Below, piece after piece: positions 7,006 to 32,566 of a DNA stretch of 64,000 nucleotides. Each line of letters opens with the position of its first letter. Within the stretch, counting starts at the first letter, position 1. The notes under the pieces were generated by a model. The model was not told the origin of the DNA. It made no database searches and saw only the letters and a program-made list of their open reading frames with translations. This DNA is from Takakia lepidozioides. Lineage: Eukaryota > Plantae > Bryophyta. A program made the position numbers and the translations under genes. The stretch is from assembly GCA_030704615.1 (NCBI GenBank), contig CM060734.1, positions 46,500,001 through 46,564,000 of the forward strand, in the 5' to 3' direction.

Positions 7006-7007
7006 CT

Positions 7008-8139: not shown

Positions 8140-11100
8140 ACATGACTCGGGCGACCACGGAGCTGTCGGAAGATACCATCAGTCGCTTGGTGGAAGCGGT
8201 GGTCGCCAGGACTTGCAAGGTAGGCAAATTTTCTTGTGAGTTGTATCAGGAAACTGGCGCCTTACGAAAAGGGAGTCAGTTATTGTTCGTGGATGGGATA
8301 ATATCCGGAACTAATGTGTCGTTGTTGGTGGACACAGGAGCGTCGCACTCCTTCATGACGCCGGCGGCGGCGCGAAAGTTGGGACTCCCGACAAGTGACG
8401 TGGGGGCCTCTATTGAGGTGCGCTCTGCCAAAGGAGAACCTCAGTTGGCGACAAGGTTGGCGTTTGATGTTCCTCTTCAACTGGGGAGTTGGGAGGGACG
8501 TGAGAACTTCACTATCTGCGAGATCGATGGAGTGGATCTCATTTTGGGAATGACCTTTTTGAGCAAATCCGGAGCGGTCATAGATGGCCGCAAGAGAGTA
8601 GTCACGCTGCCATGTGGGAATGGTGGCGAGGTTTTACGAGTGTCGGAAACGCCCAAATCCGTGGGAGGGCGAATAAACCTTCTATCAGCAAAGGAGTGGG
8701 CCGTGGAGGAGACACACGAGTCCCAGTTTTTGCTTTACATTAGAGAAGTGAAAGGAGAAGGCGATGGGGAGCCGAGCCCAGATTGGATCAAGGGGATTTT
8801 GGAGAAATACCAGGATGTGATGCCGGAGGATTTACCAAGCGGCTTGCCACCGCGAAGAGGAGTTGACCACAAAATTGAGGTGATACCGGGATCGGAACCG
8901 CCTGCCAAGGCGCCCTACCGGTTGAGCCACAAAGAGTTGGTCGAGCTGAAGACTCAGCTCAAAGATCTAATGTCAAAGGGGTACATCCGGCCGAGTAAGT
9001 CACCTTACGGAGCCCCGGTGCTATTTGCAGACAAGAAGGATGGGACGCTGCGGATGTGTGTCGATTACAGGGCTCTGAATAAGGTGACTATCAAAAACCG
9101 GTACCCTTTGCCAAGGATCGACGACCTCTTCGATCGGTTGGCAGGAGCGAAGTATTTCAGCCGGATCGACTTGCGCTCCGGCTATCACCAAATTCGGGTG
9201 GCGGAAGGAGATGAGGAGAAGACCGCGTGCAGGACAAGGTATGGTTCATATGAGTTCTTGGTGATGCCTTTTGGGCTCACCAATGCACCAGCGACATTTA
9301 GCACGCTGATGAACAGCCTTTTCCAGGAGTGGTTGGATGACTTTGTGATCGTGTACATCGACGACATCTTGGTGTACTCGAAAACAAAGGAGGAGCACCT
9401 GGAGCACCTCAAAAGGGTGTTCCAAAAATTGCGAGAAGGGAAGCTGTATGCCAAAGCTTCAAAGTGCGAATTCGGGGTCACAAAAGTGGAGTTCTTGGGG
9501 CACGTGATTACACAGGATGGGATCAAAATGGATGACAGAAAGGTGAGGGCGATCTTGGACTGGGAGCCTCCGACTTCGGTCCCGGGAGTGCGATCCTTCC
9601 TAGGACTCGCCTCCTATTACCGGAAGTATGTGAGAAATTTCGCCAAGATCGCGGGGCCGCTGTCGGACCTTCTGTGTAAATCCAAAGTCTGGGTATGGAA
9701 CACATTTTGTGGCCAAGCTTTTGCTGAATTGAAGCAGCGGATGACGGAAGCTCCAGTCTTAAAAATCCCGGAGTTCGATCGTCCGTTTGAGATTCATACA
9801 GATGCATCGGACTTCGCAATTGGGGGTGTACTTATGCAAGATGGACGTCCAGTGGCTTACGAAAGTAAGAAACTGAATGAAGTGGAGCGACGGTGGCCGA
9901 CGCACGAAAAAGAGATGAAGGCGGTGGTACATTGCCTTGAACTCTGGCGCCACTATGTTGGTTCCAACCCAGTGAAGGTGTTCACGGACAATGTCACGGT
10001 GAAGTATTTTGCCACGCAGCCCAAGTTGTCCCCAAAACAACTTAGGTGGCAAGATACTTTGGCAGTGTTCGACGTGGATATCCAGTACAAACCGGGACGG
10101 GACAATGTGGTGGCCGATGCTTTAAGTAGAAAGCAGCAGCTCTTGTTGGTGTACAAGGGCGAGACGGCGCTCCAAAGGAAGATCCGGAAGGCTTGCCGGA
10201 AGGATGAGCTGGCAAAGTGCGTGATGCAGAACTTGAGAATGGGGGTTAAATCGCAGTTCCACTTGCAAAACGGACTGCTCCGGTATAAGCAAAAACGTCT
10301 CTATGTGCCAAAGGGAGGGATCAGGGATAGTCTCTTGAGAGAATGCCATGATAGCCCGCTTGCGGGCCACGGTGGAGCCAAGCGCACTGCGGCACTCTTG
10401 AAGAAAGAGTATTTCTGGCCCAAACTGAGGGAGGAGGCAGAGGAGTATGTAAAGACATGCACCACATGCCAACAAAACCGGAGCGAGTATAAAAAGCAAG
10501 CGGGGCTGTTACAACCCTTGCCGATTCCAGAGGGGACTTGGGAAAGCGTCTCGATGGATTTCATGACTGCTATGCCGCTGTCAAAAGGATTCGATGCAAT
10601 CATGGTGGTGGTAGATAGGTTCAGTAAAATGGCCCATTTCATCCCCACCAAGGAGACGGCAACTGCGCAGGAGACAGGGCGACTTTACTTCGCCCACGTC
10701 TTAAAGCATCATGGAGTCCCGAAGGATATTGTCTCGGACCGCGACCCAAAGTTTACGAGTAAATTCTGGAGAGCACTTTGGAAGAAGATGGGGACGAGGC
10801 TGAAGATGAGCACCGCCTTCCGACCTACGACGGACGGCCAAACGGAAAGAGTGAATTCCGTAGTGAAGCAATTCTTGCGGAATTACGTGTCGGCAGACCA
10901 ATCAGACTGGATGGAACACTTAGACGCGGCAGAGTTCTGTTATAATAACACAGAACACTCCGCGACGGGAGTTTCCCCTTTTGTGTTGGTCTATGGAAAA
11001 GCACCTCTGGTGCCGACAAGTTGGGCCGCCCAGGACGTTGAGGAACCGGCAGTAGCGGCGGTACTGGAAGAACGCGAGCGTTTGTTGAAGCTCGCAAAGT

Positions 11101-11621
11101 ACAACATTGCCAAAGCTAGGAAACGGTATGAAAGGCAGGCGAATCGGAAGCGGAGGGAAGTGAAGTTTGAGGCAGGCACAGAGGTCTGGTTGAACATCAA
11201 GAATTTTCGACTACCTCCGGAAATGAGTCCGAAGTTCGTACCTCCGTATGCGGGTCCCTTTCGCATTCGGAGGGTTATGAATGAGGATGTGTATGAATTG
11301 GAGCTGCCAGCAAACAGCAAGGTGCACCCAGTATTCCATGTCTCCCTTTTGAAGCCTTACTTCAAAGATGAAGCACGTCCGAATCGGCAGCAAGTGTTGC
11401 GTCCGCCACCTATGCTGTTGGATCATGAAAATGAACCCGAGTACGAGGTGGAGGCAATACTTAAGTCGAGGAGGTTCAAGAACCGAGAAACGGAGTATCT
11501 CGTCAAATGGAAGGGCTATCATCTTGTGGAGGCATCTTGGGTGCGTGCCTCAGAAATGGGAAACGCATCCGAGGCAGTTGCAGCGTTCGAAGGGCGACCT
11601 CAAAAGCGGAAGAAGCGTTGA
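8076..11621 (+). CDS. pol: Pol polyprotein: zinc knuckle, protease, RT, RNase H, integrase, chromodomain
   Basis: LVDTGAS (protease), YIDDIL (RT), HTDASD (RNase H), [12 protein letters not shown] plus DDE and GPF (integrase), [18 protein letters not shown] (chromodomain). Confidence 0.96.
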
Positions 11622-12524
11622 TGGGGACATCAACCTTGGAGCGTGGGGGAGGAAATGCATGCTTAGCCCGGTTTAGCTAGCTCAGGAATCCGATTGCAAA
11701 AACTTGTATTGTACAAAAATTTGTGATAAAGGAAATGGGTTCCAAATATTGTGCGTCCTATTGTGTTTGGAATGGTGATGCATGGTGTGGTTGGCTGGTG
11801 TGAATGCATGCTAGCTTACAAAAGTGGGAGAGGTAAATTGGGTTAATCGTGTGTTTGCGCAGTGCCGAAATCGGGTGACTCCCATCCAAGGGGCAAGGAA
11901 ACTTGCGCCTTATTTGGGAGTTCAAGTGCTAGTGCGCACCTGGCGCGTGCGCGTACTATAACTGCGCTACCGAGGGGGTTGCCTTGTAGTGCGGGCTAAC
12001 GCGGAAGCTACGTGCTTCCGTTCACGTACTATAATCGTGTAGCCTCGGGACGAAGTCGTAGTGCGGCTTCGGCGTGTTCCCGTACCTCAGGCCAGCATTC
12101 CAAGGCGGACCCAATTGTAGTGATTGGGGCGCACGGTTGGTTCAAGGTTATCTTCCTAGTCAAAGAGGGTTCCAGGTGAACCCTTGCTCAAGGTGATGCC
12201 AAAAGCGGCATCATGAGCGATCGCAAGCAATGTTGTTGCAGTAAGGCGATTCGATCCTCGGGGAGGATCGTTCCTTGGCCTTGAAGTAGGCCAAGAAGAG
12301 TGCACTGGGAGGAGCTGGAGAGGCTCCACCCTTGGCCGGGACTTGGAGGAAGTCGGCCGAACTAGCTAGTGGAGAGTGGAGTCAAGTGTGGGGTTTGGTT
12401 CTTTGCCATGGGACGCCATGGTACGGAAACAAACTCCTTGATGTGGGACGCCACAACTTGGATGTTCGTTTCTACAAAATGGACAAGTCGATGAGGACAT
12501 CGACTCCCTGTTGGTAGGGGTGTG

Positions 12525-13247
12525 TGTCGCGGCCCTTTGCCTTGAGGGCAGGGGGTCGGGACACATGAGGGGCTGCCCCTGTGGTGGGGGCAGCGGCAGC
12601 GATAGGTATGGGGGCTGAAGCACCCTTGAGTGCCCAAGGCACTCAAGGAGGCGGAGGCGCTCACTAGGTGGAGCCCCGCACACCGGGTTGCGGTGGAGGT
12701 GGCTCCACAAGGGGTGGTGGTAGCTTAGTGGGACTTAGTGGGGGTGGCATAGGACTCACCATGGGGTGGAGACCTCGAGGTGGGAGTCGTGGGGAGTCTT
12801 GGGACTCATCACGGTCCATTGGGGCCGCGGTGAGTGGGCCAAGACTCACCGCGACTCACCACCGGGAGTCGAGGGTTTTCGTGGTGGTTCGCCATAAAAT
12901 GGCATGGCTGGTTATGAAACCCCCGCGGACAGCTACAGAAGTATATATAGGGAGTAGTAACCCCGAGAACGGTGCAAGCCCGTTGGTGACCAAAAACTAG
13001 TGAGTAAGCGAGCGAGCCGGAAAGCGACCAAAGAGTGGGGAGCTGTTCCGGACTGCCATCTACCAAAGGGAATTCTCCTAGTCCCAAATAGGTGGAGGGT
13101 TTAGAGGGAAGCGGAAGGGGACCGTTATGTCCCGGTGAGCAGCCGAAACTCCAAGTTGGCCCGGCGGCCAGGTTGGGAGTCAGGCGCGCGCATCAAAGCG
13201 AGTAACTATGACTTGAAGGGGAGTTTACCGAACTGAGGTGTGCGACA
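12525..13247 (+). repeat. 3' LTR of chromovirus
   Basis: Direct repeat of 6283-7005, preceded by G-rich TTGGTAGGGGTGTG (PPT-like). Confidence 0.95.
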
Positions 13248-15306: not shown

Positions 15307-15819
15307 GTGCTAAACCCTCTTTGGGAGTCATACTCAATTTCTCGATAACATCAAAGTTACAGTACTAACTTTTTCAGGCTGTCTTTTAGGAAAGGCAGCG
15401 GTGGATCTTTAGGAGATACAGTCATTTCTGGCGAGTCTGTTTTCGACAGCCCCCTTTCAAATTTTCTGCTTCCTGTTTATGCCGAAGCAATGGCACTTCA
15501 CGCAGCCGAGTCCCTATCCCCTGACTTTTTGGTGGCCAGCCGTAGGTGTATCCAGCGTGGATCCGGTGTTCTAAAATACTTAGACTTAGATGCAGAGGAA
15601 GAGGGGATACATTGTACTGACTCTGAGTCAGACTGAACTGTATTCTTTTAATATTCATTTTCATATTATCTGGAAAACGTTGAATCCCTTTCCTCCACCG
15701 TAGTTGTTCCTTTAGAACAAATAATAATCACAGAATCAACTTTCGTTTAAATTGTATGAATCCATCTCACAAACCTCCCTGACTCTTCTCATATCCATCT
15801 ACACTGTATTCATGCGTGC

Positions 15820-16110
15820 TCCATTCATGAAAGCTTCCTTTGTACAACATCCATTGTACATTCATCCTCTGTACTCTTTAATCCACCCCACAAACCTTCC
15901 ACACTCATTTCATATACGTTGTGCATTCGTCAAAAGATTTGGTCATGCATCTTCCTGTCATGAATTTTTGTCATTGCTCAACATCCATTATACATTCATC
16001 CATTATACATTCATCCATTTTACTCTTATCCATCCGTCATTCATCCATCTACATACATTTTTCACACTCATCCATCTGTTTATCATCCAACTGTACATTC
16101 ATCCATCCTT
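15820..16110. repeat. TTCATCC(A)-rich subterminal repeat tract
   Basis: Multiple CATTCATCCAT / TTCATCC copies. Confidence 0.7.
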
Positions 16111-16322
16111 TATTCAATGCCTTTTATTATGTCGTCCAGCTTGTTTCCGCGGTAAAGGGTGCCAATCCGCGGGAATACACTCCACTTCTTTCTGGGCGCG
16201 TGGTGACGCGGCCTTCACGTGTGATGACGTGGACTGAGCCCTGTGACGTGGCATTTGCGCAAGGTGACGTGGCGTGAGCGCAGTTGCGCTCACGTGACCA
16301 GGCTCACGCCGAGGCATCCCTG

Positions 16323-16547
16323 ACCCCTACATAAGCACACTCAGACTCTAAGCATGAAGGAGCTCGGTCACGCAGGCTCAACTCGAGAGAGATGAGCCGC
16401 GCGACTTCCGCTCTCGTGAAGATAAGACGGACCAGGTGTCAAACTAAACTTGACACCTGATTTAACACTTGACCTAAATCCAAGTGTTAAATACAAACAA
16501 CTAGTTTTATTCTAGCTGTTTTCACACTGTGCTTATTTAACTTGACA
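16323..16547 (-). repeat. Truncated 3' LTR of DNMT-gypsy (interrupted by the MULE)
   Basis: Matches 26993-27217 with few mismatches; identity stops abruptly at 16323. Confidence 0.85.
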
Positions 16548-16893
16548 GCTGTCGTGCGCATACATATCGCTACACAACTACATCGTTGTCCAAACCACAC
16601 CACACATATATGCACAATAAAGTAGTCTGCCACAATCGCCCCCCTAGCTGGTGAATAGGTCCCTCTACCGCCAGATAGCTACAAGATGGAATAGCCACAT
16701 CCGTACTAAGTCCTCTATCACTGTCCCTATTGTACTCAAACTCTATAGACCAAGGGGCCGGGTACAAGAGTAGCCCCATCGTTAGTCGCCGTCTTGCAAT
16801 CTGTGAACTTGAGCCAGGATCTTGTGTGTCAAGGTCTCCTAGTAGCTGGGCCTTGCGTTTCTTGTTAGCCTTCCATGGTTGTATCCACTCCCA

Positions 16894-18621
16894 CTATCCA
16901 ATGCAATGTGGACATAACCAATCCCCATCTGGAACCGTCTCAAGAGGTGGAGTCAAGCATCCCATATGCCAACCTCTAGAGCATCGATCGCACACCAGCA
17001 TGGTGGCTGCCCCTTTAGCAGACCCACACAACATGCACCTCAAACCTGCAGATACCACTGCCAGGTTTGGGTCAATCCTGCCATCGACATTCGGAAGGTG
17101 ACATGGCGCACAATTACGCACATGGTCCTTCCAAGTTATGCCATCCCGACCCTCCAAGACCAAGACGCCTGAGGGCAAGACCTCTCGAACCCTCAAAATA
17201 ACACGTCCTGCAGTCACATCCAGGGTCGTAGGAGCAGTCTGCTGCAGATAGACATAGTCACCAGGGTTGAATCTCCAAACCCCAGGACAATAGCCCCCAC
17301 CACGTATGGTAGCATACCTCAACGTATCACGGTGTTGTGCAATGGCAAGGTTCTCGAAAGCCATGGGCATGACTCTCTTGAACAACTCTGCACGCTGCTC
17401 ACATGCACGTGCCCACACTTCCGGATCGTCAAGGTTAAGAACTGTAGCAGCTTCTCTGCGAATGGATGTAGGCAAATCCGGCTCTCGGCCAAAGAGAAGA
17501 AAGTATGGTGAGAAGGAGGCAAGTGATGCTTGCTTGCTGAACCTGTAGCCCATGGCTAACCAGGGTAACTGAAGGTCCCAATCACCTAGGTGTCCCTTCT
17601 GCAAGCCATACTTGCGCAAATCCCTCTTTACTGTCTGAACAACTTTCTCTGCCAAGCCATCGGCCTCAGGATGATCCCGAGAAGTGGTGCGGTGGTCTAT
17701 CAAGGCCTTGTCACACAAAGCCTGAAACTCCCCCAAGAACTCTCTCCCTTGGTCCGTGAGTACCTCAGCTGGAGCACCGAATCGGCTAAGTACACAATCC
17801 AAGAATGCATACGCAGCTCCCTCACTAGCCTTATCAGGCAATGGAACCAATTCAATCCACTTGGAGAAGTGCTCCACCATCACCAACACGTACTTGTTGT
17901 GGCGCATGGTCAGTGGCAACGGCCCTGCGAAGTCAAGACTCCACCTGTAGCCCAATCCCATGATCGGAAGAGGGTGCAATTGTGGAGTAGGGGCGTTGAA
18001 TGAAGCACGCACCCTGTCACACACCATGCACCTAGCTACAAATTGTTGCACCTCTGTGTGCATACCACGCCACCAATACTGCTCCTGCAGTAGACTATGA
18101 GTGCGTCGCACCCCAAAATGCCCCAACTCCTCATGGGCATGCCGCACTAACCGTGCCCGCTGTGTTGGGTGAGGCACAATCCTCACTCGACCATCCTCCC
18201 ACACTCGGAGCAGGTGTGTCCCCTCCCACTTGAACCTCTTGGCTCGTTGTAGGATCCGATCCCTCTCCTTGGCAGTCACAGTGGCTGCCGTGTCTCCAGT
18301 GCGGAGGTAGTCCAACACAACTGAATCCTCATGTATATCTTTGGCGCCACCTTGCTCATTGTTGGCCTCAGGGTCCTCAGACACTTGATCTATAGTCATC
18401 CCTGTTGCAGGTCCAACCTGGCCTTCCGTTGCCAAGACACACAGAAATGCAGATGCATGCCATCCAGGCACCATCTCCTCGTCCGTCTCACCATGCCACC
18501 GAGCTCTAGTGTCATCCTGCTGGCTCGTGCATGGATTGCGACTCAACCCATCTGCATTGCGATTCCGGTCGATGCACCACCTGAAAGTCATACTCTTGAA
18601 GGATGAGTGCCCACCGTGCAA
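16894..18621 (-). CDS. Integrase with C-terminal PHD finger (part of the disrupted pol)
   Basis: HEELGH..CMVC, WSLDFAGP, LTDQGREF, HPEADGLAE. C4HC3 PHD CMLC..LVCDRCSRGWHMGCLTPPL..VPDGDWLCPHC at 16897-17037. Confidence 0.92.
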   Translation of the reverse strand: MHGGHSSFKSMTFRWCIDRNRNADGLSRNPCTSQQDDTRARWHGETDEEMVPGWHASAFLCVLATEGQVGPATGMTIDQVSEDPEANNEQGGAKDIHEDSVVLDYLRTGDTAATVTAKERDRILQRAKRFKWEGTHLLRVWEDGRVRIVPHPTQRARLVRHAHEELGHFGVRRTHSLLQEQYWWRGMHTEVQQFVARCMVCDRVRASFNAPTPQLHPLPIMGLGYRWSLDFAGPLPLTMRHNKYVLVMVEHFSKWIELVPLPDKASEGAAYAFLDCVLSRFGAPAEVLTDQGREFLGEFQALCDKALIDHRTTSRDHPEADGLAEKVVQTVKRDLRKYGLQKGHLGDWDLQLPWLAMGYRFSKQASLASFSPYFLLFGREPDLPTSIRREAATVLNLDDPEVWARACEQRAELFKRVMPMAFENLAIAQHRDTLRYATIRGGGYCPGVWRFNPGDYVYLQQTAPTTLDVTAGRVILRVREVLPSGVLVLEGRDGITWKDHVRNCAPCHLPNVDGRIDPNLAVVSAGLRCMLCGSAKGAATMLVCDRCSRGWHMGCLTPPLETVPDGDWLCPHCIG

Positions 18622-19859
18622 GCTTCCCCGTAAGCTTGTCTGACTCCATCAACCACTTGAGTGGTTGGTGATCCGTGACAAGGGTGAAGAGATTGCCGTA
18701 TAGATAGCACCTGAAGTATGTCACGGCCCACACTGCAGCTAAGCATTCTTCCTCATATGAGCTATACTTAGACTCTGCAGCATTATTCGAGTGGCTAGCA
18801 TAAGCCACTACGAACTCTCTTCCCTCATCATCCACCTGTGTGAGCACCGCTCCAAGCCCCAGCATGCTCCAATCTATATGCAGCTGAAAAGGACGCCCCC
18901 TGATAGGTCGTCTCAAGATGGGCGCCGAGGTCAACCTTGCCTTGAGCTCTTGAAAAGCTTGTTCTTGCTCATCTTCCCACTGCCACTCCTGGTCCACCTT
19001 GGTCAGCTTGGTTAGAGCCTTTGCAATGGCACTAAACCCTTAACAAACCGTCTATAATAGTTTGCTAACCCCATGAAAGCTCGAACTCGGCTCACATCCG
19101 TGGGGCGTGGAACCTGTGCAATGGACTCTACCTTAGTCTGTTGTACCCCCAATCCTCCAGGATATATCATGTGACCCAGATACTCAATCTGGTTGTGGAA
19201 AAACTTGCACTTGCCCGGATGTAACTTCAATCCGTGCATCCTCAAGCGCTCAAATACCCCCTGAAGGTGTCTCTCATGCTCCTCCACCGTAGCACTAAAG
19301 ATGATGATGTCATCTATGTAGCACCGAGCAAACTCCACCCTGCTAGAATCCTGTCCATGACTCTTTGAAACTCAGCGGGAGCGTTTTTAAGCCCAAATGG
19401 TAAGAACCGACACTGGTATAGGCAATCCTTCCCGTGCTCATTGATCCCCCAGAATGCCGTCTTTTGCTTATCCGCCTCCTTGATCGGCAACTAGTGATAT
19501 CCGGATCGTAAATCCAACGTGCTAAAGACCTTGGAATGCCCAATGGCATCAAAGATCTCCTCTGGTGTCGGCATGGCATACCTATCAGACTTGGTCTGAC
19601 GATTTACAGGCCGGTAATCACCGCACATACGTCTCTCCGTCCAATTGCCATAGACATCCTTCTTGGCTGACATCACTGTGGCTGAAGCATACTCTCCACC
19701 AGAGAGCTCCACCAAACCTGCCTCCCAGAGATCTTGAGTCCTCATCTGAATCAAAGACCTCTCCATGTCACTGTATCTATAGGGTCTCCGAAAGATTGGC
19801 GTGTCAGTGGCCAACTCAATACGGATCTCTTGACCCTTCAGTGCTCCCAAGTCCTTCAA
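18512..19859 (-). pseudogene. RT and RNase H of DNMT-gypsy, broken by a stop and frameshifts
   Basis: RMCGDYRPVN, FSTLDLRSGYH*, YIDDIII, FQLHIDWS, TDHQPLKWL. Confidence 0.92.
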
Positions 19860-20194
19860 ACTGAAGGCAAAGCAATTCCTGTAAGCCCTCAGGAACCGCC
19901 GTATACGTCGTCTCTCTCCTCCGGTGACAATGGGTCCAATGTCAGGCTCCCAATTGTCCTCCGTAACTGCAACCTTAAGTCCAGTGGGCTTAGGGTAGAG
20001 GACGCGTCCCGTGGTTGCTATGCTGCAACCTCTTGAGCAGTACTTCCTTCCTGCTCAGTCAATGACAAGGCCTCATCCTGCCCCATCATCTCATCATTGA
20101 GAACCTCCTCATCCCGAGAAGAATCCCCAACCTCATCCATCAGAGTTGCTTTGGCTGCCAACTCCCTCTGAACCTCGAGCACCTCCCACGTGTG

Positions 20195-22984
20195 TCATGG
20201 ATGTCTACACCCCGTGGTCCTCACCGACTCGCCCCCACTCGCTGCCTGTACCGTCTCGGTAGGCAGAGAGACCGTCAAGGGAAGTGCACTCCGCACTCTA
20301 CGTTGCTCAGCCATAGCCAAGCTGATAATCCAGGTCAAGCAATTGAGATCCATTGCTTGCCCCAACACCTGACGACGTGATGCCTCAGAAAGAGAAGGCA
20401 CCGCCGTGGTCCCAGTGGAAAACCCCATAGCCCGCTCTCGCTCGTCGGCATTAGGCTCCACTAACTGCTGCAACTGAGCATCCCACAGGAGGCCAGGTCC
20501 ACCATCCCGAAAAGCATGGGATCCTGGGAAGCTGAGCAGTGTAGGTAATGCTGCTCGTGGTTGACCCACCCTGTTGACCACTACCAAAGGCGAACGGTCA
20601 TCGTGTCTCACGCGTTGAGACTGCCTCCCTGTGTCCAAAATGCCATCCACGGTGAGGTGGGCTGACCGCTGCACCCCATCAAATGCACGCTTGAGCAGTG
20701 CGGCTGGCATCAAGTTAGTCCACCAAAGCCGTGGACGATGAGCCCGTGATCCCACTGCAGCTGCATCCAGCAGCACTGCTGACCCAAGCCACGACCGGAC
20801 TTGATGCACACTGGCCATCACCCTGGCCCGAGAATCACCCATCAGTGGCACATTCTCCAAGATGTATGCTGGAGATACAGCTTGATGAAGCTGCAAGTGG
20901 CGCAAAACCCGCACCATCTCCCAAAACAGACCCGTCCTCGAGTCTCGCAATCCATTGCCATGCCCGGCTGATGAATGCCCTTGGCAGGGCCAACCTGCCA
21001 CTATCAGATGAATGGAGCCAACCTGCTCCAAATCTTGCGCCCCCAACAAGGAAATGTCTGTTGGCAAGGCTTGTTGGTATCCACGAACTGCAGACACAGG
21101 CAACAAGTCAGGGTACTGCTGTACCAACTGAGCCACATGGCGCAGTGAGACGCGTCGTGCAGTCTCATCCCTCTCCACATACAGGTAATGCCTTACCCGC
21201 ACACCTGCCTGTAGCACAGCAGCCAATCCGGTGCTGATCCCGCCAAACAAGTCCAGAAGGCAAATGCCTTTATCCGGATACTGCCACACAATAGGTGTGG
21301 TATCCAATGGTGACAACTGGGGTGGTCCTGGTGCAATACCCGCACTCTCCTCCTCTCCTGACGGTACAAAAGCCTCTACCCAGGCTTGTTGCACCCGTCG
21401 ATCAGCAACCTGCTGCAAATCCTTGCTCGTACCCCACAATGGAGTGTGAGCAACCATGACAGGTAACTCCGCCATACCATGCATGTCATCATGCTCTGCT
21501 GGAGGTGGCACATCCTCTGCATGGGCATTGCCTTCCAGCAACTCTCTAGGCCAACTAACTGCAGCTGTAAAGGCGGCTAGTGTTGGCATCTTGCCCCGCT
21601 GGGCAGCCGCTATTCCCCCAATGAATGTCACAGGGAGCTGTGCACGGCAACCATCGTCTGACTGCCATCCAGGCCTGTAGGATGCTGACTCCTCCCAAAA
21701 GTCCAGGGTGAAGCCCATGGGATATAACACTGCCCCACCAACGAGGACATCGTAAGAGATCGCGTCTGTCACAATGGCCTTGGCTCGCATCACTGAGCCA
21801 TCTCTAGGATGATCCGGCTGCAGTCTAATGGCCAACTGATGCCGTGTCATGCCCCGAGCCTGCTCTGATCCTCCCAGAGATGTCTGTATCTGGAAAGGAC
21901 AAGGCTCCATATCCGCCTCCATGAGGCCCAAACCTGCAATAGCAGCTCTGCCCAACATCAGTGGCTGAGCTCCCGAGTCCAACAAGACCCGCAGTGGCCG
22001 GTACTTCTTGCCTGCCGGTCCACTCAAAGAGAAAATACCATCGTGGTTGTCTAACAAGACAACTCCAGGTATCACCATGGCGCGCTCAAAGGCTGGCCTA
22101 GCTGGCAGCTCCGTCAACCTGGCAGCTACAGCTTGCCATGGCGCAGCCGTGGCAGTCTTGACCCTCAAATCCGATGATCCCTCTGCCACTACACCTTCCA
22201 GTAACTCCGCAGAAGATGAAATGACCTCCCCACTCTCACAGAGTGTTGCTGCTAGTCTGAACACTGCAGCTGGTCTTACCCCCGGCGTCGCAATCATGGT
22301 TGCCGAGAATAGTGGGGCTTGACACACAGAGGTGGCTGCCCCCAACAACACACCGGCTGCACTAGCCTTGGCAGCAGGTGTCAGTGCTGCACGTGTAGCT
22401 CTCCCCAATGGCATAGAAACCTCCGCCTCGGTAACAGTCGGACGAGAACTAGGTGCCATGGATGGCATTGACACTGTCTCCGCCAAGGTGAATGACTGAG
22501 GCAGCCTCGCCTGACGGCTTGCCTCCCCACGTTGTGGATCCAACTCCACTTCTGCACCTCGTGGCTCAGGAACTTGTGCTGCTCCTCGAGTCACGGCTGC
22601 AGCAGACTCCACTTGCTCTAGTGGTAGTGCTGCTCCGCACATGAATCCCATGCCTCCCATATCTCCTCCCTCAGGAGCAGGAGGTGGACCATCCCGCCTG
22701 GGAGCCGGTACCGCCTGAGCTATAGCCATGGCAGCGAGCCTCTGCTCTAGTTGCTGAAGCCGATTGGCCATGCCTTGGTCAACACCCTGACCTCCGCGTC
22801 CTTGGCCATGTGGAGCTTGCCCTTGGCCTGCACCTCGTGCCCGACCACCTCGTCCTCTTTGGGCTGGTCCACCTCGCCCCCGGCCACCATTGTTCCCTTG
22901 GAACTGGCCTGGGCGCAACTCAGGATGCAAGTCATAACACTGGGCATCCCCATGCCCATACTTGCCACAATGCCTACACTGCAA
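20195..22984 (-). CDS. Gag C-terminus, aspartic protease and DNMT3-like C5 DNA methyltransferase (polyprotein segment)
   Basis: Zinc knuckle CRHCGKYGH..C; protease VLLDSGA (about 21970-21988). DNMT motifs: I LDLFGGI, II YVERD, IV AGWPCQG (PCQ at 20981-20989), VI YILENV, VIII AHRPRLWWTN, IX ERERAMGF, X RRQVLGQA. Confidence 0.92.
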   Translation of the reverse strand: MQCRHCGKYGHGDAQCYDLHPELRPGQFQGNNGGRGRGGPAQRGRGGRARGAGQGQAPHGQGRGGQGVDQGMANRLQQLEQRLAAMAIAQAVPAPRRDGPPPAPEGGDMGGMGFMCGAALPLEQVESAAAVTRGAAQVPEPRGAEVELDPQRGEASRQARLPQSFTLAETVSMPSMAPSSRPTVTEAEVSMPLGRATRAALTPAAKASAAGVLLGAATSVCQAPLFSATMIATPGVRPAAVFRLAATLCESGEVISSSAELLEGVVAEGSSDLRVKTATAAPWQAVAARLTELPARPAFERAMVIPGVVLLDNHDGIFSLSGPAGKKYRPLRVLLDSGAQPLMLGRAAIAGLGLMEADMEPCPFQIQTSLGGSEQARGMTRHQLAIRLQPDHPRDGSVMRAKAIVTDAISYDVLVGGAVLYPMGFTLDFWEESASYRPGWQSDDGCRAQLPVTFIGGIAAAQRGKMPTLAAFTAAVSWPRELLEGNAHAEDVPPPAEHDDMHGMAELPVMVAHTPLWGTSKDLQQVADRRVQQAWVEAFVPSGEEESAGIAPGPPQLSPLDTTPIVWQYPDKGICLLDLFGGISTGLAAVLQAGVRVRHYLYVERDETARRVSLRHVAQLVQQYPDLLPVSAVRGYQQALPTDISLLGAQDLEQVGSIHLIVAGWPCQGHSSAGHGNGLRDSRTGLFWEMVRVLRHLQLHQAVSPAYILENVPLMGDSRARVMASVHQVRSWLGSAVLLDAAAVGSRAHRPRLWWTNLMPAALLKRAFDGVQRSAHLTVDGILDTGRQSQRVRHDDRSPLVVVNRVGQPRAALPTLLSFPGSHAFRDGGPGLLWDAQLQQLVEPNADERERAMGFSTGTTAVPSLSEASRRQVLGQAMDLNCLTWIISLAMAEQRRVRSALPLTVSLPTETVQAASGGESVRTTGCRHP

Positions 22985-24219
22985 CTATGCAGGCTGTGCT
23001 TGTGCCGGCCTTTTGCCACTCTCTGGGCAATCTCTCTTGACATGGGGTCCTCCACATGTCCAACATATCACCCCTGGTTGCTGTTGGCCTGCAAAAGATG
23101 CCATGGGCCTCTGCACCTGAGGTCCCCTGTAAGCTCCATGGAACTTGGGCTGGGCAACCTTGCCCCCCTGACCACGCTGTTGGGCAGTCATTTGTGCCTG
23201 TGGGCTGACAGCTGTGCCCCGTGCAGGCATGTCCTTGCCAAATCCAATTGTAACAACTCGCTCCTCCACCATGTTGAGCTCAATCCGCTCAGCCAGCAAA
23301 AACACATCTGCTAATGTGGGTTGGGCTGCTTGTAACAGGTTGCATCTCGCACCCTTCTCTTGAGCTCCTTGTCCAGAATTCCATACCAGAACTGGATTGC
23401 CTGAGCTTCAGTAACCCCTTGGGTCACACTTATCAAGCGCCTCATACGAGTGTACGCCTCTCGCAGGCTCTCACTGGGTTTGCGCTGGAAGTCTTGCAAA
23501 CTTCGCAGCTTCTCTGTCCGTACACCTTGGTAGTTCCTCCGCAACTCCTGGAAGAACTCCACCACCGGGTTGAATCTAGGCACATATGTTGTAGTCGTGG
23601 CAGGAGGAGTAGTAGCACCTTTTGAACTGGTACCACCTGCAGAAGTACCAACACTACTTGCTCCACTACTAGTGCTAGCAGTGGGAGCTATTGGTACTGA
23701 TGCAGCTACTGGTCGCGTCGTGCCTCAAGTAATGGAGACGTAGTCAGGTGACCAATACATCCTCCACTCCTCAATCTCTGCTTCATGTCCTCGCCTGAAC
23801 TCGTGGTAATCGTCCATAGGCGGGCCTTCCAAATGCTGGAACAGTCCCTTCCACGCCATGAATGGGGTGAATAGCTGTGGATTGCGCATCTGCTGCAAAT
23901 CACACCAGCTGTCGAACTCCTGGATAAAGTCATCCAACTCGATTGTGCCCACCGCTCCAGAGTACCTACGAGGCCCCTTGGTAGCTCCATACATCTCCTC
24001 CATGTCGTCCCACAACAATGACGAATGAAAGTGCACACCTGTTGATGAAGCCTCCGAGTCTGTGTCTGACTCTACAGTAATTGAGGGTGGCGGTGAAGGT
24101 GGTCTGAACCGAATATCTCGTCTTGTGAACCCACTCTCACTGTTACTGCCTGTAGCCGTACTCCCCTCAAAACCCTTGGGTAACTCCGTAATGACACTCA
24201 CAATGTGCACCTCCTCCAC
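22985..24219 (-). pseudogene. gag: Gag of DNMT-gypsy (frameshifted)
   Basis: YSG..LDDFIQEFDSW, FQRKPSESLREAYTRM, zinc knuckle CWTCGGPHVKRDC. TAG at 22985-22987 sits where the homolog at 61.3 kb has Gln. Confidence 0.8.
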
Positions 24220-24750: not shown

Positions 24751-25488
24751 CTACCAGACTTCTCTCAAAGTGCCTCGCTCTGCATGATGGTAAGGTGTAG
24801 GAGGTATATCTATGTCCAGAAACCTACCACTAACCTTGTCCCAAGCTACAGTAGCTCGCTCTAACCAACCCTCCTCCTCTTTCTGCCAAGTAGAGACAAA
24901 GCAATACTCCCCTATCTCCCGCTCACTAAACACTAAAGAAAACAAAGGTAGGGTCTGATAGTCTCTCAACTCAAAAGCTTTGAGACGGTTGCGGGTGTCC
25001 TCATTGCGAATGATTGCATCTCCTTCAAACAGAACAAACTTGTCCTCGGTAATGAACCCCCGCTCGTGGTTGCCTTGTGCAGAGCCTGTCCGGCTGCAAC
25101 GCTGTCTGATTGCACAAACTTGTGTAGCTTCTGCTCCTCTACTCCAGTACACCACGGCCTTGTGGCTGAACACCTTGGTCCCCGGGGCTGTCTTTGGCTG
25201 TGTTCCAAGCCTAACTTTCACCCACTTTGGTATTTCACCTACAGCTGCAGAACTGCTGGCTCCAACAGAGTTCTGACTGTCCAAGGCGATATTGAGGCCC
25301 TCAATGCCAACTACCGCAGTCTGTTGTCTACTGCTAATGCCTAACTCCCAGTATGCAATCAACTCGTCCAACTGTTCTCCACTCAAATCAGTCTGAGTTC
25401 CTTGGGAAACATAAATCTTGTCCCCTTTGGTGCACAGGCTAAGAGAAGAGACCTGCCCTTCAATCACGTCCTCATTTCCCCCAGCCAT
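24751..25488 (-). CDS. Extra sense-strand ORF of unknown function upstream of gag, inside the element
   Basis: Intact 245-aa ATG ORF between the 5' LTR and gag; no recognisable motif. Confidence 0.5.
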   Translation of the reverse strand: MAGGNEDVIEGQVSSLSLCTKGDKIYVSQGTQTDLSGEQLDELIAYWELGISSRQQTAVVGIEGLNIALDSQNSVGASSSAAVGEIPKWVKVRLGTQPKTAPGTKVFSHKAVVYWSRGAEATQVCAIRQRCSRTGSAQGNHERGFITEDKFVLFEGDAIIRNEDTRNRLKAFELRDYQTLPLFSLVFSEREIGEYCFVSTWQKEEEGWLERATVAWDKVSGRFLDIDIPPTPYHHAERGTLREVW

Positions 25489-26992
25489 ACAAGAAGTACA
25501 TCCCCAGATTTATCCCTCATGTAGACCAGAATAGGTTCTAGAAACAGGATTGTGGATCTTTCATGGCACACTCACACTCACAAAATTCCATAGATTTTTA
25601 GCAGAGTCCCAAAAACAAAAACCAGGTCTAGGTAGGTAGATTCCCCCTTTCTGCAGCTATCCCCCCAAAAACTGAGTCAAACAGAGTCCATTTGACAAAG
25701 ATATGACCAATTTGGCTTTAAATCATTTAAATTAGATCAAAAGGGCCCCTTTTTTTTATAAAGGTTTTCAAATTTAAAAATTTAAAGTTACACCCAAAAT
25801 ATCTGGTAACTGGTTCCCGGTTCCCTAAGTTCTATATGGTTTCCTAGGTTCCTTGGCCACGTGTCCTATAATTCCTAGGATTTCAGTTGTGTTTACAAAT
25901 GCACCCCCCACAGCTCTTGGTTACCAGTGACCTGCTCTCCTCCAGTCGAGATCCGTAGCTATGCCGAGCCTTAATCCTTTGCACCAATATTCCCAACAAA
26001 GGCAAGAGCACTTACAATGCAACCCTGGAAAGCACCAGAGCTAACTAGCTTTGATCAAGAACGCTTACAGCCCTTCATGCGTGCTGATTTTTCAAGGTGA
26101 CAACAACAGATCTGCTATCACTGATTGTGTAAGCCTTTACATGGAGTTGGCACAGGCTGCCCTCAAGTTCTGGATTGTAAACATAGACCAAGCAGGTCGT
26201 GTAGTGAGCTGGGCCCCTTCAGCTCATATCCTGCTCATACACCAAGTGTCACCTGGTGAGTCCACAGTCTCCCACTCTCATACTCTCCTGCAACAAACAC
26301 AACTTTGAGGTTCAATCCTCCAAAACCTGAGGATCGCCAGCCTGGGAGGTTGACACTGTCAGGAAGCGCCCTTCCCTTCCAGCAAATGGCCTAAGATCTG
26401 GTGACCTCGTCTATCCTTCCCTGGACTGCTCTTGCTTGGCCTTTCTCACAGCTGCCTGACTTACCTCCGACTACCTTTCCCTGTACGCTGGCAGCGAGTC
26501 TCTACAGGGCACGGTGAATCCAGCAATATGCTTGCAAGCCAGTATGGGGCTACAAGCCAATGGCCCTTCTTGAGCTGCAACACAAATGACCACACAAGTT
26601 GGGCACGACTGACCTACTGGGTGCTCAGCCTGCCCCAGCGCTCAGGCAGCAGAGCTGCCAGGGCCCCCTGCGCGCACCCGCCACCACAAACAGGGATGAC
26701 TACACCCTGATCACCACCAACGTCAATGTGTGAAACAACAAGCGCATACCCATGGCAACAGCAGGGCCAAATGGACTCTGCCCCAAGATATATATTATAA
26801 TAGTGCTAAAACAAACATTGTATCTAGCTTAGCACTAGAAAACTAGATAGCGTCATCTCTCTCGAGTGATAAGAAAGCTAAAAGACACACTGTTCACACA
26901 AGAAACATGAAATCCCTCAACATCACTCTTTAAGATAATAGTCGAGCCAGGGGCACCCCAAGCTATGGGGACTCCACCCCACAACAACCTAT

Positions 26993-27217
26993 ACCCCTAC
27001 ATAAGCACACTCAGACTCTAAGCATGAAGGAGCTCGGTCGTGCAGGCTCAACTCGAGAGAGATGAGCCGCGCGACTGCTGCTCTCGTGAAGATAAGACGG
27101 ACCAGGTGTCAAACTAAACTTGACACCTGATTTAACACTTGACTTAAATCCAAGTGTTAAATACAAACAACTAGTTTTATTCTAGCTGTTTTCACACTGT
27201 GTTTATTTAACTTGACA
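26993..27217 (-). repeat. 5' LTR of DNMT-gypsy (shared part; the full LTR may extend to about 26721)
   Basis: Begins TGTCAAG on the minus strand at 27217. TATA-like tract at about 26790-26800. Candidate end TTGACG followed by TGG at about 26721 (uncertain). Confidence 0.8.
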
Positions 27218-27807: not shown

Positions 27808-30800
27808 TCACCAATAATCCCCACAAGAGCAAACCCCATCTTGGAAGTGGTGAAAGCGGCTGGCATCCCGTAAAACAATTGTTCTCTCAACAATTTTTGA
27901 GATGAACTTGGTGGCTGTGTGGCAGTCACCACACACCCGAAGGTTCTTCATGACACGGAGAAGCGTCCCCGGTGGTGTGCAGATGAGGCCAAAAGCAATG
28001 GCCAGCTTCTCACTGTGGTGGCAAAGAGAAAATTCCTTTTGTTCCTCCTCCAGCTCGTGCAATGCAAACCGCGTGTCAGGGACATACCCAGTTTCCTTCA
28101 TCCACCCAGATAGTCTCTTCAGCTCGCAATGAATTTCCTCAATTTTGGGATGCAACTTGTCTTCTGCAACAAATTTATGCACCTGGTTGTCCACCTCAAT
28201 CCAGCTGTGCCCTGGCTCCTTTTTAACACCTCTGTCCTTCATCATTTTTCTCACCTTCACTGTATCGTCCCACCTTCCAACAGCAGCATAGATGTTGGAT
28301 AGCAGCACATAAGTGGCGGCATGACGTGGATCCCACTTGAGAAAGCATTTTGCAGCACGTTCTGCTATTTCCACATTGCAATGAATTCTGCAAGCACCAA
28401 GCAAGGAACCCCACACCACAGCACCTGGTTTGATTGGCATGTTGTTAACTAAGTCCTCTGCCTCATCCAATTGCCCTGCACGCCCCAGGAGGTCCACCAA
28501 GCAGCCAAAATGCTCCACTGTAGGTGTGAGACCATGATCGCGACTCATGGAATCAAAGTAGTGATGGCCTTCATCCACCAGGCCCACATGGCTACATGCA
28601 GAGAGGACACATAAAAAAGTTATCCCATCTGGTTTCATACCTTCCTGTTGCATTTGATCAAATAGTTCCAACGCCTCCCTCCCACACCCATGCTGAGCAT
28701 ATCCTGCTATCATCACACTCCATGAGACCACATCGCGTTCAGCCATTTTGTCGAACACTTGACAAGCATCCCTCATGCACCCAGATTTGGCATACATGTC
28801 CACAAGGGCAGTCTCCAGCATGACATCTGGAGGATTTCCAGCTTTGATGATGACAGCATGGACCTCTCTGCCCTTTTCTACAGCTGCCAGGCTGGCACAC
28901 GCATTGAGAACGCAAATGTGCGAGACCTTGTTGGGTGTCACCCCCTCCCGTATCATTTGCTCATACATCTCCACAGCCTCTCTGCCACACCCATGCTGTG
29001 AATATCCTGCAATCATTGCACTCCATGAGACCACATCTGGCTTCGACATGTTGAGGAACACTAGATGTGCATCCTTCATGCTCCCACATTTGGCATACAT
29101 GTCAACAAGGGCAGTCTCCACAATGACATCTGGAGTAATTCCAGATTTGATGATGTCAGCATGGACCCCTTTGCCCTTTTCTAGTGCTGCCAGACTAGCA
29201 CAAGCATTGAGAACACAGATGAATGTAACCTTGTCAGGTATCACCTCTTCCCATATCATCTGCTCATACATCTCCAAAGCCTCCATACTACATGCATGCT
29301 GCATGTATCCGGTGATCATGGCATTCCATGAGACCACATCTCGTTTAACCATATTGTCAAACACTTGAAGTGCACTCTTTACACTCCCGCATTTCGCATA
29401 CATAGTAGAAAGGGCAGTCTCCAGAGTAATATCTGGCAGAATTCCAGATTTGATAATCTCGGCATGGACCTCTTTGCCATTTTCCAGGGCTGCCATGCTG
29501 GCACATGCATTCAGAACGCAAATGAATGTGACTTTGTTGGGCATGATTCCTTCCCGAGTCATTTGCTCATACATCTCAAAAGCTTCCTTACCACACCCAT
29601 GCTGAGCATATCCTGTGATCATTGCATTCCATGACACCACATCTCGGTTTGGCATACTGTCGAACACTTGATGCGCATCCTTTATGCTCCTGCACTTGAC
29701 ATACATGTCAATAAGGGTATTCTCCAGAATGATATTTGGCACAATTCCAGCTTTGATGATATCAGCATGGACCGCCTTGCCCTTTTCCAAGCCTGCAAAA
29801 CTTGCACAGGCCCTGAGAACGCAAATGAACGTGGCTTTGCTCGGTGCCACCCCTTCCCCTAGCATTTGTCTGTAGATGTTGAAAGCCTCCCTGCCACAGT
29901 GATTTTGTGCATATCCTGCAATCATTGTGTTCCATGAGACCACATTTCGTTCAGCCATACTGTTAAACACTTCATGCGCACCCTTCGTGTTCCCACATTT
30001 GGCATACATGGCAGCAAGGGCAGTCTCGAGAATTATATCTCGTGCAACTCCTACTCTGATGATGTCAGCATGAACCTCTTTGCCCTTTTCCAGGGCTCCT
30101 AGGCTGGCACATGCTTTCACAACGGAAATGAATGTGATCTTGTTGGGTGTGACACCTTCTCGTACCATTTGCTCATACATCTTAAGGGCCTCCCTACCAC
30201 ATCCATGCTGAGAATATCCTGCGATCATGGCACTCCATGAGACCACATTTCGTCGAGACATCTTGTCAAAAACTTGCTGTGCATCCTTCATGTTCCCACA
30301 TTTGGCATACATGGCAGCAAGAGCAGTCTCCAAAATGGTATCTGATGCAATTCCAGCTTTGATTATGTCAGCATGAATCTCTTTGCCCTTTTCCAGGGCT
30401 CCTATACTGGCACATGCATTGAGAATGCAAATGAAAGTGATCCTTTCGGGTGTCACCCCTTCCTTACTCATTTGCTCATAGAGCTCCAAGGCCTCCCTAC
30501 CAAACCCATGCTTGGCATAACCTCCCACCATTAGATTCCATGTGACCATATCTCGTTCAGACATTTTGTCAAACACCAGCCGTGCATCCACCACACTTCC
30601 ACACTTCGCATACAAGTTGACAACAGTGTTGAGCAGGAAGATGCTTGACTTGAATCCACTTTTAATAATGTGGGTGTGCACCTGCTTTCCCTCAGCCAGG
30701 GCTTTCAGCTTGATGCACTCCTGCAAGAGACAGACATAAGTGTTGGAGTCTGCCGAAGTGCCTCCTTGGTTCAACATCTGGAGTGCCTCCCTCAATTTTG

Positions 30801-30939
30801 CAGTCTTACATAGTGTCCTAACATCCCCACAGGTGTTAGAAGAATTCTTATTGACTCCATCTCTTGGTCCGCTTTCATAAGCAATGGTCACGGTGGAGGT
30901 AACTGATCCAACCAACTGCGCTTGATTCAACCCTGCCAT
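27808..30939 (-). CDS. PLS-class PPR protein with E1/E2/DYW deaminase domain (organellar C-to-U RNA editing factor)
   Basis: About seven P-L-S triplets, PG box [21 protein letters not shown] and C-terminal CSCGDYW. The ATG follows a possible CAG acceptor, so upstream exons may exist. Confidence 0.96.
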
Positions 30940-32566
30940 CCTGCATGACTCACTCGTGGTTAACAGAATATATCTTAAAGCTTCTCCAACTTCAGAGCAA
31001 TAATGACAGCCTCCTTGCTACATTTTTAAAGGGGTTTTTTGGGTGGTGGTTAGCTTTCCACACCACAATATGCAGGTAGATGCTTGCAACAAATATACCC
31101 AACTCAGACAGCAGCTGCAACACCATTATGTGTCCTTTTATGCCCTGACTGCCAACTGTGTTGTACACTGTAACACTTGCAACAAGTTATGACACAAAAT
31201 ATCTGTGTGGCACTCCGCCTTTGTGTAACCTTCGTGCAACCTGCCACATTTGTTTACTGCACTTCCCTGTGAAGGGGGAGGGTCCCATCCTCTCATCGAC
31301 AGGTAAGAACTCTGCTCATTGCGATAAGCATCGGGTGGATTCATCCCCTCATAAAAATTCTCAAGAGAGAAATTGGCAGAATCCCATGCAACTAAAAGAG
31401 AAACATCACAAATTCCTGAGGTCTGCATGGTTGCTGTCATACTGGAAATCCCCTGATGATTCCCCTCCACCAGGGCTTGCAACAGACTTCTGCCTAGCTA
31501 TTTCCAGATTCTCCAATTGGCCATCTACCCACGCAGGCCTCTTGTAGCCATCAATCCCCAGAGCCTCTTTGGTGCTCTTGTGCCTGGAATAGAGTCCCCG
31601 CGGATTGATCTGCACCCAATTCCCTCTACCTCCTTCAGCTATCCCTGCCTCCACAACAAATGAAATAGGGATGTGAAGTAAAGGGAATATAGAAGTAACA
31701 CTGACATTGACACTATTTAGAGGAATATCGTCTATGTCATTGACTTCCACGACCAGACGCGCTGCAAAACAAATCCGATCCCTTTTCTTCACATGGTCCC
31801 CTGCGCTCTCAGCCAGCATATCCCAAATCTCCACACCCAACCTGCCATCCCAACCTGGTCAGGAGAAAGAAACGTAGAAACAACAGAACAGAAGTCCTGG
31901 CCAAAAGCAACTCAAGCTGGACAATGGGTTTTTCACATCAATAGAAGCACGAACAGTTCCTCCCACCTGTATGCAATTATAATCCAAACAGGAGCTGAAA
32001 AGAAGCGCGTCAGATTTCTCGTGCATTTAGGGGATCAACCCGAATTTCCATTCTGCCCATCCCCAATTCACTCTCATAACCACTGCCCCCCGACTAGCTC
32101 GAGACTGTAAGACATAAGCCTCAGTGCAATAGGGTAGGGAAATGCAGAGGCGCATACAGCACACCGTGAAGATTTCAGCCCGGTGCCAGGCTCGCGAGCA
32201 GCATATTCTCGTGGCGGAGGCCACCCCGAGCTGCAAGGATGATGTGCCTGGAAGGGGGCGAAGCAGGGCATGGTGGAGATGGCAGGCGTCTCCAACATGG
32301 GTGCCCTGCTTACTGTATGTGCTGCCATGGAGAAGAAACACAGCCCGGCCGTTGGTGGGCGACTGGGCTTTAGGGCCACAGCGTCAACCACCTTTTCACA
32401 AGCCAACGCGGTCTTACCACAGTGAAGGTTTTCCTACTTACATAAAGTACGTCACCAGGGGCATCCATCCCGGACTGACAGGGTCCTATCCACATCCACA
32501 GCACTCTCCCCCAGCTTTCCTTTTGCTCTGTTGTGAAGGGCTCTTCCTGTGGAGCTTGGGGTCAAA

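Follow-up and report, generated by a model that had tools for sequence, protein, structure and literature searches.

A DNMT3-type cytosine methyltransferase upstream of a conserved stop codon in a high-copy Ty3/gypsy family of Takakia lepidozioides and its bryophyte relatives

A DNMT3-type methyltransferase in a decayed Ty3/gypsy element

We analyzed a 64,000-nt stretch of the genome of the bryophyte Takakia lepidozioides (GenBank assembly GCA_030704615.1, contig CM060734.1, positions 46,500,001 to 46,564,000 of the forward strand; hereafter the window) and found in it a decayed copy of a high-copy Ty3/gypsy retrotransposon family of the KnitGypsy-Dnmt3 lineage. With high confidence, the element, which lies on the minus strand, is organized as Gag, protease (PR) and a DNMT3-type cytosine methyltransferase (DNMT), followed by a stop codon, reverse transcriptase (RT), RNase H (RH), integrase (INT) and a PHD finger, all set between split repeats (Table 1). 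The order PR-RT-RH-INT, with a D-D-E integrase, is that of Ty3/gypsy elements. An earlier, sequence-only reading had placed the DNMT in Pol, within a single gag-PR-DNMT-RT polyprotein. Neither statement held: the DNMT is the last domain of the Gag-protease open reading frame (ORF), placed upstream of a conserved stop, and RT, RNase H and integrase are preceded by stops and frameshifts, with a stop between DNMT and RT throughout much of the family. The same reading had put the DNMT in frame with gag and protease. This is correct for the zinc knuckle and protease motif, which share with the DNMT a stop-free stretch of 929 codons (20195-22984), and incorrect for the capsid region, which two stops and a frameshift separate from the rest. 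The window copy is, to judge from its sequence, non-functional; it has four premature stops (23727, 22987, 20197 and 19493) and five frameshifts (near 23320, 19993, 19337, 19036 and 18564), none of which falls within the DNMT.

The seven motifs of C5 cytosine methyltransferases that had been read from the sequence were all located in order and in one frame on the minus strand (21256-20354): LDLFGGI (21256-21236), YVERD (21181-21167), PCQ (20989-20981), ENV (20857-20849), AHRPRLWWTN (20743-20714), ERERAMGF (20443-20420) and RRQVLGQA (20377-20354). Motifs I to X are thus unpermuted, and the catalytic PC and ENV are present. The catalytic cysteine, reported as intact, is invariant together with the motif VI glutamate in 30 of 30 aligned family domains, down to 32% identity, and the S-adenosylmethionine (SAM)-binding motif is kept. 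The proposed profile check returned Pfam DNA_methylase (PF00145) at E 1.1e-11 and 45.2 bits, against a cut-off of 22. The suggested likeness to DNMT3 enzymes was borne out as well. DNMT3A was the best PDB match of the window domain, and a profile built from the 30 family domains ranked DNMT3A (1.6e-27) ahead of DNMT3B (2e-25), DRM (8e-15), DNMT2 (9e-11) and M.HhaI (1e-8), with neither DNMT1 nor CMT among its 57 PDB matches. An AlphaFold model of the domain (pLDDT 92.9) matched the DNMT3A fold over its full length (E 2.7e-20, TM 0.71). We therefore assign the domain to the DNMT3 class by profile and fold similarity, as opposed to a tree with host DNMT3.

The stop between DNMT and RT

In the window, the DNMT is followed by an in-frame TAG at 20020 and then by CAA CCA, which fits UAG-CAR-YYA, the type I readthrough signal of tobamoviruses (PMC3542737; statements about cited papers refer here to the portions of their text that were available). 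None of four read runs lists a variant at the TAG or in the six bases after it; other copies in the reads differ from the window copy at the nearby premature stop and frameshift. We compared the element with a set of 77 metagenome loci (L-numbers) and with fetched proteins (P-numbers). Some of these loci are re-assemblies of one site; at 97%, the 46 rows, which include the window, reduce to 38 distinct junctions. TAG or TAA followed by CAR was present in the RT frame, 41 or 48 codons ahead of RT, in 36 of 46 loci, and the contexts CAA CCA, CAA TCA and CAG TTA all fit the consensus. L003, L021, L023 and L035 each have ORF1 and ORF2 in a common frame with a single stop between them; in L021 this is one frame of 2417 codons, interrupted only at the end of ORF1. 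The window copy had suggested a -1 frameshift between ORF1 and RT, which we rejected because both ORFs share one frame in other copies and in relatives.

We consider it likely, from these alignments, that the stop is leaky and that readthrough would yield RT-RH-INT-PHD. Because the DNMT ends ORF1 (Gag-protease-DNMT) before the stop, it would be made at the level of Gag and not of Pol. Among 112 proteins with a match to the end of the DNMT, 73 end there, 22 continue into RT and 17 carry the DNMT before integrase, classes that include fragments and spliced gene models. The DNMT runs on into RT in the Klebsormidium-group proteins P0053, P0122 and P0125, so that the stop looks derived.

Abundance, range and selection

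In a same-species read run (X1), 98,341 contigs fell on the 12.5-kb element stretch. Their summed depth, which does not represent a copy number, was 0.68-1.26 million over the coding region; part of the leader had about 2,400 and a contig from the flank had 63. The depth over the DNMT was similar to that over RT and integrase; together with relatives that carry the domain, this supports the DNMT as a family feature and not the one-off capture that had been named as a refutation. In a second organism, a single 5009-nt contig reaches from integrase to DNMT. The DNMT was followed by RT in 46 of the 77 metagenome loci and lay between RNase H and integrase in 8 of 77.

A protein search gave 61 matches, of which 21 were from named land plants (18 Marchantia, one Calypogeia and two Sphagnum), at no more than 74% identity. 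A profile search added Klebsormidium nitens KFL_009030040 and a Scenedesmus pol protein; no vascular plant was named among the 120 of 298 profile matches listed. The K. nitens protein has the order PR-DNMT-RT-RH-INT, and its DNMT is 45% identical to that of the window, in agreement with the kinship to charophyte DNMT-gypsy elements (de Mendoza 2018) that had been proposed. The proposed extension of range to land plants also stands, although not as something special to the Takakia genome, since unrecognized members are present in Marchantia, Calypogeia and Sphagnum annotations. A further family DNMT, P0109, is labelled as coming from a bacterial metagenome bin (Candidatus Obscuribacterales) and is most likely plant DNA in a bacterial bin.

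The comparison of DNMT and RT phylogenies that had been called for recovered the same main groups, with agreement between the two trees at a Mantel rho of 0.49 (20 rows, 1/2000 permutations). Both the RT-RH and the DNMT tree unite the window with L003, Marchantia and Sphagnum-type loci; the other common groups are L021 with L035, a Klebsormidium group and an RH-DNMT-INT group. The trees are quick IQ-TREE searches with SH-aLRT support only, and the RT tree has a single outgroup on a long branch. All 39 element DNMTs grouped apart from 9 viral or prokaryotic enzymes, in a tree whose deep nodes are weak and which does not include host DNMT3; it leaves out L076 and 3 of 12 viral rows (short or ill-defined), and its outgroups are viral and prokaryotic only. 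The viral contigs, used solely as outgroups, gave 17 weak, ordinary methyltransferase matches (23-46% over short stretches).

The ratio of nonsynonymous to synonymous substitution (dN/dS) was not near 1, the value named earlier as telling against a maintained domain. It was 0.08-0.19 for the DNMT in six between-lineage pairs, two further pairs being saturated. The pair L021-L023 gave 0.147 at a dS of 0.25, and other between-lineage pairs were near saturation. Three pairs of close, decayed copies gave 0.41-0.69. These ratios indicate that the DNMT is under purifying selection between lineages.

The loci with the DNMT ahead of integrase (L051, L054, L058, L060, L061 and L072-L074), together with proteins P0044, P0046 and P0092, define a second architecture, RT-RH-DNMT-INT-PHD. 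Its members form their own group in both trees and include the Scenedesmus protein P0092, and it follows that the DNMT has changed its place in the polyprotein and extends to chlorophytes. As a separate observation, RT is broken at a common position by an insertion of about 0.9 kb in L009, L010 and L016, part of which recurs elsewhere in the L016 contig.

Probable self-priming and split repeats

The bases that follow repeat A are complementary to a segment inside A, over 14 nt in the window, 16 nt in L034/L032 (one site) and 15 nt in L021. These three pairs are unrelated to one another, and each was matched by 0 of 2000 shuffles. The self-primer segment lies about 25-30 nt past a TATA-like motif in L034/L032 and L021; the primer site of L021 is 3' of its 3' A, in an apparently collapsed assembly. 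The primer helix forms in the folded RNA (z of -5.08 for the window; a second value was -2.72), and no tRNA-type TGG start was found after A. Very probably, then, reverse transcription would be primed by the 5' end of the element's own RNA, as in Tf1.

Rather than two ordinary long terminal repeats (LTRs), the family shows the layouts A-internal-B-A-B or A-internal-B. The former is found whole in L034 and L048 (A of 339 bp, B of 114 bp), which have TG...CA ends and are flanked by 4-bp target duplications. The latter occurs in L018, L028 and L027, also with 4-bp duplications (one mismatch in L027), and L016 and L063 have B-A-B at the 3' end. The version in the window is partial: A1, the polypurine tract, B1 and the junction are there, along with 225 bp of A2, but searches of the window for a B2 repeat and for a target duplication found neither. 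In other copies, the contig joints of same-species reads place A before B. Repeat B adjoins the G-run polypurine tract, and its joint to A is the palindrome GACA-GC-TGTC. This sequence is retained in the window, in L014, L034 and L035 and in the distant locus L051, and it occurs in variant form in L016, L021, L048 and L063 (the survey covered 27 loci with a PHD finger, many of which end too early or have no palindrome).

Given the position of B after the polypurine tract and its palindromic joint to A, B plus A corresponds to an ordinary LTR, of which the integrated form is a permutation. The split LTR combined with 4-bp duplications suggests that integrase opens an end-joined complementary DNA (cDNA). 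The simplest route would be opening at the internal B/A junction with loss of the two central bases, and foamy virus integrase has been reported to cut a palindrome at an LTR junction (PMC1180852). We regard an end-joined cDNA as an integration intermediate that could prove right or wrong with equal ease. The A-internal-B form may come from a one-LTR circle or from later B-B recombination. None of the five duplications matched NCGN, the target preference of Phygy, and no tyrosine recombinase was detected. Troyka, which was considered and rejected, has CG...CG ends and a 3-bp duplication and is restricted to animals (PMC12440569), compared with TG...CA and 4 bp here.

Relation to known elements

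The closest described system is KnitGypsy-Dnmt3 of K. nitens, which likewise has a DNMT3-type domain in a Ty3/gypsy polyprotein under purifying selection and for which a DIRS-like repeat layout is noted in the legend of Fig. 4c (PMC5890265). The position of the DNMT3 between protease and RT (P0105 compared with the window), a Ka/Ks of the DNMT under 0.2 between lineages and DIRS-like split repeats (seen in full in L034 and L048 and in part in the window) are all shared with that element. KnitGypsy-Dnmt3 differs in carrying the DNMT in its Pol ORF (PMC5890265), whereas the present family has a land-plant host and a conserved stop before RT; because of this stop, it is a variant and not a plain member of KnitGypsy-Dnmt3. 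The available text of PMC5890265 does not mention self-priming, 4-bp duplications, a junction palindrome, a PHD finger or Marchantia.

Retroelement-encoded C5 methyltransferases are also found in SymbioDIRS-Dnmt3, SymbioLINE-Dnmt and EpiLTRs (PMC5890265; bioRxiv 10.64898/2026.05.21.726589), but these belong to tyrosine recombinase or LINE classes, or to a DNMT4-near clade with a chromodomain. The split-direct-repeat DIRS elements of PAT/Ngaro type share the layout A-internal-B-A-B (supplement of PMC5890265); the present family differs from them in combining a D-D-E integrase with TG...CA ends and 4-bp target duplications. In Tf1/Sushi and plant Tcn1 elements, too, the primer site is complementary to the 5' end of the element itself, and Tj1 requires a stop at the end of Gag (PMC6317226, PMC4600332). 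Those elements have ordinary LTRs and mostly a chromodomain, with no DNMT described in the available text; here the stop comes after protease and DNMT, and the integrase ends in a PHD finger. The tobamovirus readthrough signal is the same UAG-CAR-YYA, placed in this case, putatively, between a Gag-PR-DNMT ORF and RT.

Later papers name "streptophytes" as hosts, citing de Mendoza 2018 (PMC12344493, bioRxiv 10.64898/2026.05.21.726589), and their supplementary trees may hold bryophyte sequences. In the open-access literature, which leaves subscription journals and Repbase outside, we found no account of these elements in land plants, of the stop after the DNMT, or of the priming and duplications. 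According to an opinion paper, land plants such as tracheophytes lack transposons that encode methylases (PMC6338049, as far as its available text goes); bryophytes at least do have them.

Possible function of the methyltransferase

Combining these features, we lean toward a model in which the DNMT is packaged at Gag level and likely CG-methylates the element's own cDNA before integration. A single RNA would start inside repeat A, and most ribosomes would stop after the DNMT, with a minority reading through UAG-CAR-YYA into RT-RH-INT-PHD. The protease would release the DNMT inside the particle. The 5' end of the RNA would prime reverse transcription in the manner of Tf1, giving a cDNA with two full B-A LTRs, whose ends would then be joined; integrase would open the internal B/A palindrome, producing A-internal-B-A-B and a 4-bp duplication. 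The PHD finger would steer insertion to chromatin with unmethylated H3K4, and the new copy would arrive CG-methylated and so resemble host DNA. Methylation of its own cDNA is preferred as the role of the enzyme because the domain lies on the Gag side, its catalytic residues are invariant and other retroelement DNMT3s have demonstrated activity on CG (SymbioDIRS-Dnmt3 domains carry out de novo CG methylation in yeast; PMC5890265). That this is the function for which the domain was selected is, on such comparative grounds, an evenly balanced proposition.

Several observations weigh against this model. The isolated K. nitens domain was inactive in yeast, a result that its authors call inconclusive (PMC5890265). 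The ratio of observed to expected CpG is 0.50 in the element, 0.89 in a neighboring DNMT-less chromovirus and 0.33 in a host gene. Nor is CG overrepresented among 17 near-fixed transitions (2 CG, 6 CHG and 9 CHH). No stop was present at the ORF1-end position in 8 of 46 loci, and 2 of 46 had another context; of the 36 stop-bearing loci, 31 (Sphagnum type) have CAA CCC or CAA CCT, with the last base off the strict consensus. The self-primer match is weak or missing in four of seven A repeats (two 9-nt matches and two deletions) and was not found in L051. The mirror form A-B-A-internal-B, expected from a symmetric two-LTR circle, was seen in 0 of 11 distinct 5' ends.

An active DNMT might alternatively have host chromatin as its selected target, travelling with the integration complex or working in trans and methylating the insertion site or other copies and so damping family activity or remodeling the landing site. 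A DNMT together with a PHD finger that would read H3 tails mimics the reader-plus-writer layout of host DNMT3, and in the second architecture (8/77 loci and the Scenedesmus protein) the DNMT is directly ahead of integrase; the option was itself raised by de Mendoza 2018 (PMC5890265). We find it unlikely, as the stop separates the DNMT, with Gag, from integrase and PHD finger, a position for which a role inside the particle is the better fit. Less likely still, the domain may be kept without catalysis, serving to bind nucleic acid or as a structural element of the particle, or it may act on RNA. Gag-level expression is typical of structural proteins, and the yeast result for K. nitens points the same way, but the invariant cysteine and glutamate (30/30), the SAM motif and the full-length DNMT3A fold match all favor a catalytic enzyme.

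Other alternatives concern expression and origin. If the stop were the true end of ORF1, with RT-RH-INT obtained by splicing, a separate transcript or separate initiation, the DNMT would still be made at Gag level. The 31 loci that miss strict CARYYA by one base would accord with such an arrangement, as would several Marchantia and Sphagnum gene models in which predicted splicing joins DNMT to RT. Set against these are the four loci with ORF1 and ORF2 in frame around a single stop, and the three differing 3' contexts that fit CAR-YYA even though synonymous divergence between lineages is near saturation; on this evidence a true stop seems improbable. The idea that a single capture of a host DNMT3 fragment, or a chimeric assembly, explains the domain draws on the degeneracy of the window copy and is refuted by the recurrence of DNMT-then-RT order in 46/77 loci and in Marchantia, Calypogeia, Sphagnum and Klebsormidium proteins, by the 5009-nt contig of the second organism and by purifying selection.

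Returning to packaged, cDNA-directed methylation, we raise tentatively, and as a doubtful generalization, an unrecognized green-lineage clade extending from chlorophytes to bryophytes, in which Gag-level DNMT3 via readthrough, self-priming and integration from the internal palindrome of an end-joined, pre-methylated cDNA would go together. If true, a circle-type junction would be the normal precursor of integration for a natural retroelement; the split LTRs and integrase-type duplications do point to an unusual integration intermediate. Since 2018 it has been an open question why a transposon keeps an enzyme that normally silences it, in part because the hosts known so far are difficult experimental subjects. 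The Marchantia polymorpha members (18 of the 61 protein matches) bring this question into a genetic model. With the DNMT located ahead of a readthrough-type stop, a high ratio of enzyme to cDNA is to be expected in the particle, a prediction open to direct measurement. Copies of the family would also inflate DNMT counts in bryophyte annotations and be missed by LTR finders that expect two ordinary LTRs.

Features of the window

The remaining coordinates of the element are collected in Table 1. The 3' limit of A1 was placed from contig joints in same-species reads and from alignment with the A ends of relatives. An open frame in the 5' leader had no Pfam match, no counterpart in the fetched loci or proteins and no usable Atlas match. 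The Gag capsid region matched Retrotrans_gag below the cut-off (E 2.6e-4) and is 63% identical to Marchantia Mp4g09160. The window protease had no match of its own in Pfam or PDB searches and was called from its D-S-G motif and from alignment with relatives that bear PF13650/PF13975 over the same stretch. The solved PHD fingers nearest to that of the element are those of CHD4, KDM5A/B, PHF12, ATXR5, PHF21A, BAZ2 and UHRF1, which are readers of unmethylated H3 tails.

Table 1. Parts of the Ty3/gypsy element in the window.
Feature	Coordinates	Strand	Remarks
5' terminal repeat A1, 351 bp	26867..27217	-	begins TGTCA, closes CA; 225 bp 97% identical to 16323-16547
Predicted transcript 5' end / self-primer	27052..27065	-	positions 153-166 of A
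Primer-binding position, directly 3' of A1	26853..26866	-	pairs with the element's own 5' end
252-codon open frame, 5' leader	24751..25509	-	may not be a gene
Gag capsid region	23317..24003	-	stop at 23727, frameshift near 23320
Zinc knuckle, Gag C-terminus	22937..22978	-	directly after premature stop at 22987
Aspartic protease	21500..22102	-	LLDSGA motif at 21985-21968
DNMT3-type C5 cytosine methyltransferase domain	20294..21292	-	uninterrupted; catalytic PC and ENV intact
Family-conserved ORF1 end, TAG CAA CCA	20012..20020	-	fits type I readthrough consensus UAG-CAR-YYA
Reverse transcriptase	19036..19994	-	YIDD at 19320; RVT_1 E 3.9e-14; stop at 19493, frameshifts near 19993, 19337 and 19036
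RNase H	18564..19036	-	RT_RNaseH E 2.7e-36; frameshift near 18564 after domain
Integrase: HHCC zinc finger, D-D-E core, GPY/F-like motif	17490..18168	-	Integrase_H2C2 4.6e-17, rve 4.7e-14
PHD finger, integrase C-terminus	16903..17037	-	Pfam PHD 2.7e-10
Polypurine tract core, G6	16639..16644	-	position and context common to relatives
Repeat B1	16550..16636	-	alignable to B repeat of relatives
Palindromic B/A junction GACA-GC-TGTCA	16543..16553	-	element end and start, two bases between
Repeat A2, truncated after 225 bp	16323..16547	-	remainder of A2, and B2, absent from the window

Repeat A2 is abutted and truncated by a high-copy repeat (15500-16322) with TGACGTGG and CATCCAT units, whose edge at 16322 joins other element positions in reads, as that of an inserting element would. 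Two further Ty3/gypsy sequences are present in the window. An apparently intact chromovirus-like element (6282-13121, plus strand) has near-identical 598-bp LTRs, a 1233-codon pol frame and no DNMT, and a perfect self-primer match was looked for in it and not found. A Gag zinc-knuckle fragment of a related subfamily (60837-61481, minus strand) is 73% identical in DNA to 22696-23074, with no DNMT in the window. A 698-codon frame with a zinc-binding-like stretch (138-2234, plus strand) gives the impression of a DNA-transposon protein.

Three host genes flank the DNMT-bearing element: one for a long PPR-DYW protein (27808-31017, minus strand), a two-exon cytochrome P450 (42266-44089, minus strand) and a three-exon CDSP32 thioredoxin (36317-38426, plus strand). 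Comparison of the latter two genes gave a coarse host placement among seed-free land plants, probably bryophytes. The nearest named relatives of the P450, among 10 of 150 matches, were from mosses at 47% (pimaradiene oxidase) and 43%, followed by Selaginella and Riccia. CDSP32 fell outside both the moss and the angiosperm groups in a comparison of 36 rows, in which no liverwort, hornwort, lycophyte or fern was named.

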